From assembly GCF_025056915.1 (NCBI RefSeq), contig NZ_JANWVH010000002.1, positions 1,024-65,023 of the forward strand: a stretch of DNA of 64,000 nt. Direction: 5' to 3'. Of this stretch, positions 6,118 through 53,880 are shown piece by piece. Source of the stretch: Meiothermus sp. Its GTDB lineage: Bacteria > Deinococcota > Deinococci > Deinococcales > Thermaceae. The position numbers and the translations under genes were made by a program. The notes under the pieces were generated by a model that did no database searches, was not told the DNA's origin, and saw only the letters and a list, made by a program, of their open reading frames with translations. How positions within the stretch are numbered: the stretch's first letter is position 1; each line of letters begins with the position of its first letter.

Positions 6118-6188
6118 TGGCCGCCTTCCTTCTGTTCAGGACAAAGCCCTCCCGCAGTCGAATGGCCGATAACAGGTGGAAAGCGCTC
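6118..6188 (+). repeat. Degenerate 3' half of MITE-like repeat family 1, head-to-tail with the next copy
   Basis: ttctgttcagga...tcgaatggccgataacaggtggaaagcgctc aligns with the family 3' half (ttctgttcagaac...tcgaatggctcataatttgtgaagagcgctc). Confidence 0.55.
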
Positions 6189-6190
6189 TA

Positions 6191-6292
6191 TCGCGCTCTT
6201 CACAGATGTGGCCGCCCATCCAGGCGGCCATTGCTCTGTTTAGAAACAGGCTTTCTCGAACTCGAATGGTTCATGATATGTGAAGAGCGCTC
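6191..6292 (+). mobile_element. MITE-like repeat family 1, 102-bp short variant, TA-flanked
   Basis: TA|TCGCGCTCTTCACA...TGTGAAGAGCGCTC|TA; internal junction gtggccgcccatccaggcggcca. Confidence 0.8.
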
Positions 6293-6397
6293 TAAACTGT
6301 GTCGCACAAAAGCCCGTACAACATACACCCGCACGGCGAGCGGATTAAGTCAATCCTGGCCGCGACTCGCCCCCTCCCGACCCCGTACGACTTTGCA

Positions 6398-20659: not shown

Positions 20660-20848
20660 AAAGATACCCCTGCTCGCCCACAGATTCCAAAGAGCGATAG
20701 CCCACAAGCCCCACCCGACCGCGTTGGGGAGGGTATCGGACAAGACCCTCCATCTGCTGGTGGCGTGAAAGGCCAGGCCCGCAACCCCACCTGGCCTACC
20801 CTGCGAGGTCGGGGAGGAACCGAGCGAGTCCAGGCGAGGATTGACTTA
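20660..20848 (+). repeat. Dispersed repeat family 2, copy 1
   Basis: agataccc...cacagattccaaag..gatagccc...gagggtatcggacaagaccc.ccatctgctg...ggaaccgagcgagtccaggc.aggattgactta matches 39174-39345 (reverse) and 47724-47853. Confidence 0.8.
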
Positions 20849-21034
20849 GAGCGCACTTCACATATTAGGAGCCACTCGAGTTCGAGAAAGGCTGGTTCTG
20901 AACAGAACCGTGGCGGCCTGGAAACTCGAAAACATGGGTCGGCCCGGACGCAACGCAGACAGACGTGCCTCACCGAGGTGAGGCACGTCTGCTTGTCCCT
21001 TTTTCGTGGGCGGCCACGTCTGGGAAGAGCGCGA
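20849..21034 (-). mobile_element. MITE-like repeat family 1, near full-length copy
   Basis: TA|GAGCGCACTTCACA...GGGAAGAGCGCGA|TG; central perfect hairpin agacgtgcctcacc-ga-ggtgaggcacgtct. Confidence 0.85.
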
Positions 21035-21124
21035 TGATTCGCTCAGCGTGCGGTGTGGTTGCATGGGCTTTCATGGAACACAGTATCCACCGACCCCGCA
21101 AGGAAAGGAGTAGAATCCTGGACA

Positions 21125-22505: not shown

Positions 22506-22710
22506 GTGGCCGCCCGCGAAAACCTGAAGGGACAAGCAAACAGGCCTCACGGAGGTCAGGCACGCTCGTCTGCGTTGCGCCTGGGCCGAGCCGCAGGTTA
22601 CGCACCCAAGCGGGGGCTGGGCCCGGCCCACAGGTGCCTGGGTTTCGAGTATCCAGAAAGCCAAGGCTCTGCCACAAAGCTTTCTTGAACTGGGTAAGCG
22701 GAGGGCGCTC
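22506..22710 (+). repeat. Degenerate copy of MITE-like repeat family 1 with internal insertion
   Basis: gtggccgcccgcgaaaac..gaagggacaa..gcctcacggaggtcaggcacgc..tctgcgttgcgcctgggccgag ... gtttcgagtatccag ... gagggcgctc. Confidence 0.65.
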
Positions 22711-33675: not shown

Positions 33676-33779
33676 CAGCGGAAGACACCCCATGCCTCTC
33701 TTCCTGAAGAAGCACATCATGCAATCAGACTTCTGGCCAAGCCTGCCCTTATACCAAATCTACGACGAGGTAACACATA

Positions 33780-33973
33780 TCGCGCTCTTCACAGACGTGG
33801 CCGCCCACGAAAACGAGAAGGGACAAAGAGACGTGCCTCACCTCGGTGAGGCACGCTTAACTGCGTTCTGTCTGGGCCGAGACGCATGTGTTCGAGTTTC
33901 CAGGCGGCCACTGTTCTGTTCAGAACCAGGCGTTCTCGAACTCGAGTGGCTTTAAATATTGTGAAGAGCGCCC
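33780..33973 (+). mobile_element. MITE-like repeat family 1, full-length 194-bp copy, TA-flanked
   Basis: TA(33778-9)|TCGCGCTCTTCACA...TGTGAAGAGCGCCC|TA(33974-5). Confidence 0.88.
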
Positions 33974-35313
33974 TAGTCGGCAGCCGCCCCCACCACGCCC
34001 AGGGCTTCATCCACCAGGGCTAGGCCCTCTTCAATCACGTCCAGGCCGTATTTTAGCTCCTCGCGGTTGATGACCAGGGGTGGGCAGACCCAGAGCATGT
34101 TGAAGCGGCTGAAGGCGTAGATATGCCTGGACTTGAGGTAGCCCGCCAGCTTTTGCATCTCGGGCGAGGTGCCGTTGAAGGTGGACAGGGGCTATTTGGT
34201 GGCCTTGTCCCTGACCAGCTCGAGCACGCTGAAAAGCCCGATATAGCGCACATCACCCACACAGGCGTACTTCTTGCGCATGGCCTCGAGGCGCTCGCCT
34301 AGGTACCGGCCCTGTTCCTCGGTGTTTTCAAACAGGCGCTCCTCCTCGTAAACCGAGAGGTTGGCCACCGCAGCGGCGCAGGAGACCGGGTGGCCGGAGT
34401 AGGTCAGGCCCCCCCAGAGCATGTGGTCTTCGAAGAAGTCGGCAATCGGCTTGGAGACAATCACCGCCCCCAGGGGCATGTAGCCGCTGGTCAGGCCCTT
34501 GGCGCAGGTCACGATATCCGGCATGATGCCGTAGTGCTGCGTGGAAAGCCACTTGCCGGTGCGGCCAAAACCGCTCATCACCTCGTCGGTGATGAGCAGG
34601 ATGCCGTACTTGTCGCACAAGGCCCGCAGCTTGGGGTAGTAGTCGTCCGGGGGCACCAATAGCCCGTTGGAGCCGGTGATGCCCTCGACCATGATGGCCG
34701 CAATGGTGTGGGGGCCTTCCATCTGGATGATTTCCTCGATGTGGCTCACGCACTCCCGCCGGCAGCTGTCCGGGGTCTTTCCGAAGGGACAGCGGTAGCA
34801 GTAGGGGTCGAAAGCCCGCACAATGCTGGGAATGCCCGGCTCCACCGGCCAGCGCCGGGGGTCGCCCGAGGCGGTCATGGAACCCATGGTGGCCCCGTGG
34901 TAGCTGCGGTAGCGGGTGATGATTTTGTCGCGGCCCGTGTAGAGGCGGGCTATCTTCATGGCGTTTTCGTTGGCCTCGGCCCCCCCCAGGCAGAAGAACG
35001 ACTTGGCCAGCCCCGTGACCTCAGCGAGTTTCCGGCCCAGTTGTCCTCTGGGCTCGGTGGCAAAGCTGGGGCCTGCAAAGCAGAGTTCGTCCACCTGCTT
35101 CTTGATGGCCTCGAGCACCTTAGGGTGCTGGTGCCCCACGTTGATGTTGATGAGCTGGCTGCTAAAGTCCAGCCACTTGTTCCCCTCGCCGTCCCAGAAC
35201 CACACCCCTTGCGAGCGAACCATGTGGATGGGGTTCGAGGTGCTCTGCACCGACCACGAAAACAAGGTGTAGTCGCGGTTCTCCTGGATAACTTCCTTGG
35301 ATGTGCGTTCCAC
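33973..35313 (-). pseudogene. Class III (omega-amino acid) PLP aminotransferase interrupted by an in-frame TAG
   Basis: GTG 35313 after AGGAGG; DFSSQL, YRSYHG, DEVMSGFGRTG, CAKG. TAG at 34192-34194 is followed in frame by PLSTFNGTSPEMQ...CPPLVI...AAAD. Confidence 0.8.
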
Positions 35314-35577
35314 GCTGAGCCTCCTTCTTGGCTTTGTGATTATGGTAGGGCCGCACCCCACCCCATGCAATGGACAATATGTCCAAGAGTCATAAGGATT
35401 TCTTAGCTTTCAAAAAATCTTTTTCAAACTTAAAAGCAAGTCCCGGCGGTCAGTGGCTAAAAGAACCGTCGGGGCCAAGCCTGGGGCAGCTAGAAATCTC
35501 GGTTGTGCTGTTCGGAGCATGAAATATTGACCCATGAGCGCATCTTGCAAAAGGCCCCGTCCGGCCAACCCTTCATA

Positions 35578-35770
35578 TCGCGCTCTTCACAGACGTGGCC
35601 GCCTATGAAAACAAGAAGGGACAAAGAGACGTGCATCACCTAGGTAAGACACGCTTGTCTGCGTTGCGTCTGGGCCGAGACGCATGTTTTCAAGTTTCCA
35701 GGCCGCCACTGTGCTGTTCAGAACCAGGCTTTCTCGAACTCGAATGGCACATAATATGCGAAGAGCGCTC
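35578..35770 (+). mobile_element. MITE-like repeat family 1, 193-bp copy, TA-flanked
   Basis: TA(35576-7)|TCGCGCTCTTCACA...TGCGAAGAGCGCTC|TA(35771-2). Confidence 0.87.
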
Positions 35771-36804
35771 TAGCTGCTGCGCAACGGGTTGGGCGTCAGC
35801 TTCAGCTCGATTTTTAGAATCTGGCTGCCCCGGCGAATCGTCAGGGTCACGCTCTCGCCCACCTCTTTGCTGCGGATGTACCTTTGCAGGGCGGTGACAT
35901 CGTTGAAGGCCCGGCCATCGGCCTCGAGGATCACGTCAAAATCGTAGACTTCCTGGCCGTTTTCGCGGCGAACCACAAAACCGCGCAGACCGGCCCGCTC
36001 GGCGGCCCCCCCGCGCAGCAATCCGCGAATCAAAACGCCTTCTTTGGGGATGCGCAGGGTGGCAGCCGTTTCGTCGTCAATCTGGAAAAGCTGCACACCA
36101 ATGTAGGGCACATCGCGTTTGCGACCCGCCTGGAGCTGGCTTATCACCTCGCTCAGCCCCAGCAGGGGCGACAAATAGCTCTCAAAAACGCCGTTGGGCT
36201 GGCCAATCGCCACCACCACGGCAACCACCTTTCCGGCCTGGTTGAGCACCGGGCCGCCCGAGTCGCCGGGCGCCAGGGGGATGGTCGTGGAGATGGCAAT
36301 GGAGTTGAAGAAGGGGAAAATGTCCCGCTCAACGGTATTGACCAGGCCGTAGCGCGGCGCAATGAAGGCCCCCCTCGAGTTTCCAATCGCCAGCAATGGT
36401 TCACCCGCGCGGGGGCCCTGCTCGGTCTCGAGGGTCAGAAAGGGCACCGGGGCGTTGACCCGGGCCCGCAAAATGGCGATATCGCGGAACTCATCGTAGC
36501 CCAACAGCTCGGCAGGGAACGATTCGTTCCTGGAGTTGACCACCCGAACACTGCGGGTGTCCTCGATCACGTGGTATGCGGTCATGACCAGCCCATCGGC
36601 GCTGATAAAAAAGCCGGAGCCCGTGCCTTCGGGAACCGTTTCAATGCGAAGCGCTGCCGGCAGGGCGCGGGTGTAGACCGGCTCGAGGGCGCTCCGCATC
36701 TCGGCGCTCAGGGTGCGGGGGGTCTGTACCGGCTGTGCGTGAATCACCGCAGCCAGTGTGCCGAGGTAGGCCAATACCACGAAAATCAACCAGGAACGCC
36801 GCAT
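35770..36804 (-). CDS. HtrA/DegP-like trypsin serine protease with PDZ domain
   Basis: N-terminal signal/TM, GTGSGF, TAYHV, DIAIL, PGDSGGP, PYIGV PDZ start; RBS AGGAG. Confidence 0.9.
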   Translation of the reverse strand: MRRSWLIFVVLAYLGTLAAVIHAQPVQTPRTLSAEMRSALEPVYTRALPAALRIETVPEGTGSGFFISADGLVMTAYHVIEDTRSVRVVNSRNESFPAELLGYDEFRDIAILRARVNAPVPFLTLETEQGPRAGEPLLAIGNSRGAFIAPRYGLVNTVERDIFPFFNSIAISTTIPLAPGDSGGPVLNQAGKVVAVVVAIGQPNGVFESYLSPLLGLSEVISQLQAGRKRDVPYIGVQLFQIDDETAATLRIPKEGVLIRGLLRGGAAERAGLRGFVVRRENGQEVYDFDVILEADGRAFNDVTALQRYIRSKEVGESVTLTIRRGSQILKIELKLTPNPLRSS

Positions 36805-36942: not shown

Positions 36943-36985
36943 CTGGCCAGGGTTCACGCCTTCGCACCTTTCGCGGTGGGACGTA

Positions 36986-37087
36986 GAACGCTCTTCACAT
37001 ATTGTGAGCCATTCGAGTTTGAGAAAGCCTGGTTCTGAACAGAACAGTGGCCGCCTGGATGGGCGGCCACGTCTGTGAAGGGCGCGA
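36986..37087 (-). mobile_element. MITE-like repeat family 1, 102-bp short variant
   Basis: TA|GAACGCTCTTCACA...TGTGAAGGGCGCGA|TG; same deletion junction as 6191-6292. Confidence 0.82.
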
Positions 37088-37150
37088 TGAACTTTTCAGC
37101 GCAGCAATGGCGGCTGTAGCGGGGACTCGGGGAATCGCCGTGAGTGCTGT

Positions 37151-47853: not shown

Positions 47854-47880
47854 CCCGCGCCTTACACGTCTCTCGGCTTA

Positions 47881-48038
47881 TCGCGTTCTTCACAGACGTG
47901 GCCGCCCACGAAAACGAGAAGGGACAAAGAGACGTGCCTCACCGAGACGCATGTTTTCGAGTTTCCAGAGCGGTCACTTTTCTGTTCAGAACCAGGCTTT
48001 CTCGAACTCGAATGGCTCATAATTTGTGAAGAGCGCTC
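47881..48038 (+). mobile_element. MITE-like repeat family 1, 158-bp internally deleted copy, TA-flanked
   Basis: TA(47879-80)|TCGCGTTCTTCACA...TGTGAAGAGCGCTC|TA(48039-40); the deletion joins at a short ccgag repeat. Confidence 0.85.
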
Positions 48039-48228
48039 TATACCTCAAAACGAAGGGGGAATCTTTGGTTGATTTGTTACCCTATGTGCTGCCAGGACAG
48101 CCCTTTTCAGCCGTTGCGGTGGCCTTGCCGAGCGGGGCCAGGGCTTGAGGGCCTCTGCAAAGAGGCGGCTGCAAGATAAAGAAGACGAGCGGGACAAGGT
48201 GGGTTCGGTATGATACGATGCCCCAGTT

Positions 48229-53557: not shown

Positions 53558-53680
53558 ACTCCTAGATTAGGGTATCACAATCATTTTGTTGGCAACAGAA
53601 TGCAGGGTGATTGGGCACCCAGCCGGTTCACCAAAGGCAGGGGTTGCAGGCCGAATGTTTCCTGATAACCAAGACGAATT

Positions 53681-53719
53681 CTCGTTTTTCGTGGGCGGCC
53701 ACGTCTTTGAAGAGCGCGA
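53681..53719 (-). repeat. 5'-terminal fragment of MITE-like repeat family 1
   Basis: ctcgtttttcgtgggcggccacgtctttgaagagcgcga followed by TA. Confidence 0.72.
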
Positions 53720-53880
53720 TATAGGGGGAGACACCCGACCAACCTCCGCTCAGGCTCACCTTGTGGGCCCTGCAAAGTCGCTTGTGCGCCCGAAGTTGGT
53801 ATCGAAACTGGGTTTGGTAGAGGCTCGCTTTACAAACCCCGTTCGCGCCGAACCCGTTGCCGGCTTCCAGCCAGGATTGT

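Follow-up and report, generated by a model that had tools for sequence, protein, structure and literature searches.

RUP elements of Streptococcus pneumoniae are non-coding sequences of ~100-200 bp whose terminal inverted repeats match those of an IS630-family insertion sequence (IS), IS630-Spn1; they insert at TA and are present in about a hundred or more intergenic copies (PMC2229807). The Correia (or NEMIS) elements of Neisseria have TA-flanked inverted-repeat ends and come in a long form of 155 bp and a short one of 107 bp, from which an internal segment is deleted; they number hundreds of copies and form a strong hairpin in transcripts, and no host transposase is known for them (PMC2229807). 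Thermus, the sister genus of Meiothermus, carries ISTth6, an IS630-family element with 2-bp direct repeats (PMC6352166). Here we analyse a family of short, highly structured repeats in a Meiothermus sp., starting from the element at 33778-33975 of a 64,000-nt window (the whole stretch of DNA that was analysed, C114:1024-65023 of an assembly of 3.02 Mb in 191 contigs with 63.5% G+C; G000 denotes this assembly, other G numbers the genomes of relatives, C numbers contigs and L numbers extracted loci or contigs). The family very probably consists of miniature inverted-repeat transposable elements (MITEs) of IS630/Tc1-mariner type, mobilized in trans by an IS630-family transposase of the L066/C124 lineage described below.

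How does this family compare with the described systems? RUP and IS630-Spn1 are the closest analogue, and insertion into other mobile elements is a further common feature (PMC2229807). There is, however, no sequence relationship between the two, and the Meiothermus family differs in its host, a GC-rich thermophile of the Deinococcota, in its four size classes with nested hairpin cargo, and in its cognate IS, of which this genome has only a degraded copy; pneumococci do have IS630-Spn1. With the Correia elements it has in common TA-flanked ends, long and short forms, hundreds of copies, a strong predicted hairpin and orphan status, but the Meiothermus family has a candidate parent IS. The ends of Correia elements measure 26 bp and are unrelated in sequence to those of the family. 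The candidate parent lineage itself resembles the IS630 family in its helix-turn-helix and DDE_3 domains (NF033545, PF13358), its two open reading frames (ORFs) with an A-run, its length of ~1 kb, its 2-bp TA duplication and its CTAG-like target preference; the window repeats, by contrast, encode nothing and have only ~16 terminal nt and a short sub-terminal box in common with the IS of this lineage. The family is a further, well-documented case of an ordinary and known kind of element, comparable to RUP/IS630-Spn1 and Correia. It is apparently without a name so far: full-text literature searches returned no account of MITEs in Meiothermus, in a comparison that did not extend to ISfinder names.

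Ends, target duplication and stop codons

A 197-nt consensus derived from 115 full genomic copies reads TA-TCGCGCTCTTCACA…TGTGAAGAGCGCTC-TA. The terminal inverted repeats are 12-16 bp long and the consensus ends take the form TA-TC-GCGCTCTTCACA … TGTGAAGAGCGC-TC-TA, in which the 12-nt core GCGCTCTTCACA/TGTGAAGAGCGC is a perfect inverted repeat that is also found in most full copies. An earlier note on this DNA, made from the window alone, had described such terminal repeats and proposed a non-autonomous family; consistent with that proposal, the elements are non-coding and, at 106-198 bp, too short for a transposase gene. The note had also listed nine copies or fragments in the window, and all of them were recovered by a pattern search and by blastn of 33778-33975 against the window, which returned six complete copies and three fragments. 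The 14-mer end motif matched the window ten times with at most two mismatches, compared to 0.54 matches expected, and none of 100 shuffles reached ten. As the note had stated, copies occur on both strands, all six complete ones lie between called ORFs (two overlap a stop codon by 3 nt), and in the alignment TA flanks the 3' side in six of six complete copies and the 5' side in four of six plus the 53679 fragment, with CA in the other two.

Orthologous spacers of relatives, whose coding DNA is ~91% identical, were too diverged for base-exact empty sites, and we used paralogous ones instead, namely uninterrupted sister copies of the other repeat families that host three of the elements. (i) At C165:11094-11260 the filled site reads …GTCGCA-TA-(element)-TA-AAAGCC…, and five empty sister copies read GTCGCATAAAAGCC (CGCA-TA-AAAGCC). 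(ii) At C128:21904-22091 the filled site is CATAC-TA-(element)-TA-TTGAAG and the empty site is CATAC-(TA/GA/CA)-TTGAAG. (iii) The window copy at 20847-21036 (C114:21870-22059) reads GACT-TA-(element)-TG-ATTCGC when filled and GACTT-(A/G)-ATTCGC when empty; more than 40 uninterrupted sister copies of its host repeat match across the junction, and the ten that were aligned all have one T(A/G). In each of the three pairs the doubling is confined to a single dinucleotide, the adjoining bases being different. Thus, the target duplication is 2 bp, not 3 or 4, and the TA duplication proposed from the window holds in three filled/empty comparisons, paralogous rather than between sister strains. A 4-bp CTAG duplication of the IS1380 type was considered and is excluded by the bases that adjoin the duplicated TA. 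The repeat that hosts 20847-21036 belongs to a second dispersed family of dozens of copies (window ~20660-20846 and 21037-21100; also C108:14496-14593 and C119:26143-26254), and C128:21904-22091 lies in a member of another repeat family (e.g. C147:61657-61746).

Are the repeats perhaps not cut-and-paste MITEs but small RNA genes, or REP/BIME-type palindromes served by a RAYT tyrosine transposase? Their abundance, intergenic position and palindromic sequence would agree with this, as would the mosaics that they form with other repeats. However, the 2-bp duplication and the empty sites already contradict such a reading, true terminal inverted repeats match an IS630 element, both orientations are found, the elements far exceed the size of REPs (20-40 nt), and neither an Rfam match nor covariation was detected (see below). 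We therefore regard this explanation as scarcely credible.

CTAG is the target preference of IS630. In the Meiothermus family, TA flanks 96 of the 5' ends and 94 of the 3' ends of the 115 full copies, and YTAR is found at 51 of the 85 copies that are not on stop codons, compared to 18% of intergenic TAs. The remaining 30 copies sit on stop codons: in each, the neighbouring gene is terminated by a TAG, its first stop in frame, in which the TA is the duplicated one and the G comes from the 3' end of the element (the complement of …GCGCTC-TA). This class amounts to 26% of full copies against a naive expectation of 3.7%, as judged from crude ORF calls (2390 genes, 81% of the assembly) in which intergenic DNA is over-estimated. 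With its 5' end on a gene end, an element would yield TAT and the frame would run on; 0 of 115 copies are placed in this way.

Two such insertions lie in the window. The 198-bp element at 33778-33975 (plus strand, 197-bp class) has TA at both ends and reads TA-TCGCGCTCTTCACA … TGTGAAGAGCGCC-CTA, its 3' CTA being the TAG stop (33973-33975, minus strand) of an aminotransferase gene; the 197-bp full-length copy at 35576-35772 (plus strand) provides in the same way the TAG stop of an HtrA-like protease gene (35770-36804, minus strand). Both genes already end at CTAG in relatives that have no element there, and the HtrA-like gene ends in ...CCTAGC... without the element in G009, G008 and G011. We read the stop-codon pattern as target preference combined with purifying selection, in which the harmless orientation survives and the opposite orientation, intragenic insertions and promoter insertions are lost; selection would then be the cause of the orientation bias.

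Several further observations concern these gene ends. The crude G000 ORFs end in 932 TAG (40%), 947 TGA and 424 TAA codons, a TAG share that seems high for a GC-rich bacterium, and full copies of the family account for only 30 of the 932. In G019, a diverged family copy (~70% identical; L028:1751-~2030, G019:C1) adjoins the same aminotransferase stop as 33778-33975 and in the same orientation; closer relatives have no element there. Either this TA has been hit more than once or the polymorphism is an old one. The aminotransferase gene (class III) also contains an in-frame TAG at 34192-34194 (minus strand), where eight relatives have GAG (Glu), and beyond it 72 more codons can be read before the regular stop (33973-33975) is reached. 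A nonsense mutation, a polymorphism of the strain and an error in the assembly are all possible causes. On the other side of the element, ~33 nt (33743-33777) match the end of a second IS (ATACCAAATCTACGACGAGGTGACACATA…), which is ~1.1 kb long with 31-39-nt inverted repeats and a weak DDE_3 match, is present in three copies in G019 (L041/L042) and is collapsed into a 729-bp contig (C83) in G000.

A candidate parent insertion sequence

A Pfam DDE_3 search of G000 found no IS630 transposase above threshold. Using tblastn with the transposases of relatives, together with a reading of the DNA, we located a degraded IS630-family element at C124:13089-13929. It retains a helix-turn-helix region, an A8 run, a …VDECG… motif and the C-terminal motif …ISPQDIADWFHHCSYPVAQFL up to the stop codon, and a 123-bp internal deletion takes out the second D and the E; the pseudogene matches NCBIfam NF033545 'IS630 family transposase' (E = 1e-17) and the Pfam domains HTH_33, HTH_Tnp_IS630 and DDE_3. 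The right end of this element, …TGGCTCAGTTCTTGTGAAGAGCGCTGTA, aligns with the MITE 3' end, …TGGCTCATAATATGTGAAGAGCGCTCTA. The TGA stop of its transposase gene is part of the inverted repeat and stands 9 nt before the TA, an arrangement also seen in a 54%-identical IS of G041; this is thus a true IS end and not an abutting MITE fragment.

A protein search yielded closer relatives, among whose contigs are L066 and L067, metagenome contigs of ~1 kb that each hold one intact IS of 984 bp; L066 is 86% identical in nucleotide sequence to the C124 copy. The L066-type IS consists of a left end TA-CAGCACTCTTCAGG…, orfA (111 aa), an A8 slippery run, orfB and a right end …CTGTGAAGAGCGCTG-TA. Its ORFs match NF033545, HTH_Tnp_IS630 and DDE_3, and orfB carries the residues D (VDECG), D (WDNL) and E (SPIEQ). 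When compared with the MITE, the L066 ends (TACAGCGCTCTTCACAG…) agree at 15 of 16 positions of the 3' end, at 13 of 13 positions of the 5' end and at 17 of 17 positions of the G019 form of the 5' end, and a GAGCCA box at positions ~22-28 is common to both. The IS630-type assignment suggested from the window is thus borne out by an IS of that family with matching ends, a degraded copy of which resides in the same genome, and the match suggests that a transposase of the L066/C124 type mobilized the family.

Alternatively, the MITE could be moved by a different transposase, either one encoded by a further IS630 lineage in the genus, for instance that of the G041 element (ends TAGAGCGCC…), or one from another family that duplicates 2 bp (the IS5/IS427 group). 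The genus does contain several IS630 lineages, the MITE-rich relatives G019, G010, G021 and G006 are without the cognate IS, and the G041 IS and the MITE have the tip TAGAGCG in common. Yet the family ends (GCGCYCTTCRC) were present in none of the nine IS630-like loci sampled from relatives and no IS5-type evidence was seen, whereas the L066/C124 lineage matches 15-17 terminal nucleotides as well as the sub-terminal box. Another source of transposase is therefore unlikely in our view.

Other observations weigh against a MITE family driven by the L066/C124 lineage. First, MITE and IS have only the outer ~16 nt and the GAGCCA box in common; the MITE interior has no similarity to the IS, and the MITE is therefore not a simple internal-deletion derivative. 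Second, no intact cognate transposase was found in G000 or in any of 25 other Meiothermus species representatives, so that the case for mobilization is one of end similarity only. This includes G019, despite its ~60 young-looking copies. Third, the excess of copies on stop codons falls to perhaps 2-3-fold after correction for the YTAR preference and the ORF calls, the preference raising the expectation because TAR is a stop codon by definition. When exact 5' and 3' arms in G019 were paired in a hunt for autonomous copies, no spacing fell outside 81-719 bp; the long G019 copies (520-726 bp; L049-L052) hold a nested, unrelated IS630-type MITE of ~335 bp with ends AGTGCTCTGGTAAC, inserted at TA. 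These ends are also the ends of an IS630 element of G009 (L037).

What would be the mechanism of transposition by the L066/C124 lineage? An IS630-family DDE transposase supplied in trans would recognize the element ends, excise the element and reinsert it at a TA, with YTAR favoured, thereby doubling the TA; the 984-bp two-ORF IS would represent the parent lineage. The 167-, 150- and 106-bp forms would have lost stepwise larger nested hairpin domains, each being amplified as its own subfamily. Because the target motif includes TAR and the element's 3' end forms TAG on the opposite strand, an element landing in a stop codon in this orientation would spare the gene; the opposite orientation would abolish the stop and is unseen.

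Size classes, fold and gene context

The 115 full copies fall into four sharp length classes, in which each shorter form is without one complete nested hairpin domain: ~197 bp (46 copies, no consensus positions missing), 167 bp (23 copies, positions 51-80 missing), 150 bp (24 copies, positions 43-89 missing) and 106 bp (22 copies, positions 31-121 missing). The minimum-free-energy fold of the consensus reaches -90.7 kcal/mol (z = -5.95) and that of the reverse strand -89.5 kcal/mol (z = -6.1), the fold being strong on both strands, as is to be expected of palindromic DNA. The nested stems named in the earlier note are those of this fold, and the three missing segments coincide with three nested, helix-bounded domains of it. 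The shorter forms probably arose by deletion rather than the longer ones by insertion. On reading the consensus we found no microhomology at the three deletion junctions (all A|T) and thus do not claim slipped mispairing; diagnostic substitutions were only weakly associated with size class. G019 has a 282-bp form with two extra hairpin modules, and the hairpin cargo is thus modular across species. At the other extreme, a minimal element of ~33 bp at C105:18448-18480 of G000 has only the inverted repeats, set next to each other: TATC GCGCTCTTCACA GACTA TGTGAAGAGCGC TCTA.

The remaining window copies illustrate these classes. The 190-bp copy at 20847-21036 (minus strand, flanks TA and TG), inside the second repeat family, belongs to the long class, and the 162-bp copy at 47879-48040 (plus strand), in which the central GTGCCTCACC/GGTGAGGCAC hairpin is absent, to the 167-bp class. 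The 31-121 deletion characterizes both 106-bp copies, at 6189-6294 (plus strand) and at 36984-37089 (minus strand, 5' flank CA), the latter being absent from the orthologous spacer of G003, G005, G006, G010 and G021. As for the fragments, 53679-53721 (minus strand) is a TA-flanked solo 5' arm (consensus positions 1-43, 95% identical) and 22506-22598 (plus strand) a decayed internal fragment (positions 20-112, 78% identical); a weak match immediately ahead of the 6189 copy, at 6130-6166 (plus strand, 76% identical to positions 137-173, E = 0.12), is marginal alone.

Is the fold itself maintained? When the 115 copies were placed on the consensus structure, we counted 7 compensatory double changes, compared to 9.8 expected in shuffles (maximum 17), and 92.5% of cells were paired, equal to partner-shuffled copies. 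Thus, the copies decay neutrally and show no sign of selection on the fold, and the absence of covariation lends no support to the action on mRNA ends that the earlier note had considered. The window had no Rfam match at gathering thresholds, in line with the earlier note, which recognized no described name for the family; below threshold, only STnc100 was matched, with 15 bits where 47 are required.

These results bear on a different reading, in which the elements are functional gene-end modules (bidirectional terminators, 3'-end stabilizers or RNase targets, as for Neisseria Correia elements) whose abundance is kept by selection and not by transposition alone. For the Correia elements, an IHF site, promoters and processing by RNase III are on record. 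In Meiothermus, the very stable fold on both strands, the terminator-like hairpins that each strand of the element contains ahead of T-rich tracts, and the 30 copies that start exactly at a stop codon would fit such a role. So would the gene context, since copies are enriched downstream of genes: of 111 full copies, 40 lie in convergent, 57 in tandem and 14 in divergent spacers, of which the genome has 387, 1423 and 395, so that convergent spacers hold 40/111 copies versus a background of ~18-20%. However, purifying selection on any insertion would also deplete promoter-bearing spacers, the T-tracts are weak, and, outside the stop-codon class, copies have no preferred orientation with respect to the gene upstream (47 vs 61). 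Moreover, whole hairpin domains are dispensable, three deletion classes being present in more than 20 copies each, and, as stated above, compensatory changes are not in excess and pairing is no better than in shuffles. Maintenance as gene-end modules is accordingly improbable. A bolder variant would make the TAG-regenerating 3' end an adaptation for docking on stop codons in a TA-poor, GC-rich thermophile, with the hairpin modules co-opted as heat-stable bidirectional terminators or mRNA 3'-end protectors. We hold this idea to be doubtful; if it were true, gain and loss of modules would tune gene-end behaviour across Meiothermus species.

Distribution and age of the family

Whole-genome blastn identified 274 loci in G000, in both orientations, adding up to 32.2 kb or 1.06% of the assembly, with both termini present in 116, and a motif scan counted ~193 5' arms and ~175 3' arms; the hundreds of genomic copies extrapolated from the window are thus real. 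Sixty of the 274 loci lie within 50 bp of contig ends, which explains the fragmentation of the assembly. Family matches were found in 18 of 24 other Meiothermus species genomes, and 16 genomes from other families of the order gave one weak match only. A plasmid collection searched with the consensus gave no match. A 22-mer scan of species-representative genomes returned a sole match, L001, a 1650-bp contig (JANZZA010000023.1) filed as an Armatimonadota metagenome-assembled genome. In G000, L001 matches the end of C111 at 97.8% identity and the start of C190 at 95.8%, with a family copy bridging the two, and judging from these identities it is likely to be mis-binned Meiothermus DNA.

The guanylate kinase of G000 is 95% identical to that of Meiothermus hypogaeus, the closest named relative; for the enzymes of M. 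ruber, M. cerbereus and M. taiwanensis the values are 89-91%. The β' subunit has 1527 aa. The SNR repeats of Deinococcus, suspected from the GC content and from multi-replicon relatives, were ruled out, as the genome has no DdrB and its guanylate kinase is that of a Meiothermus.

How old is the family? In the complete Meiothermus genome G019, the ~60 copies are almost identical over their first ~100 nt and are apparently young. In G000, copies are 90-94% identical to their class consensus, no two are identical, and the highest pairwise identity is 94-97%. Because copies differ from the consensus by 6-10%, none are identical and only one broken copy of the parent IS is left, the family is probably old in G000 and immobile now.

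These findings leave the known working of such elements unchanged. In practice, the consensus would allow annotators to mask the family across the genus. For the biology of these elements, the family provides a clean thermophile case of MITEs that have outlasted their IS630 parent in most species of the genus. The case comprises a series of hairpin-domain deletion derivatives, each of which was amplified, and the combination of a YTAR target with a TAG-forming end, which leads to harmless stop-codon insertions in one orientation only.

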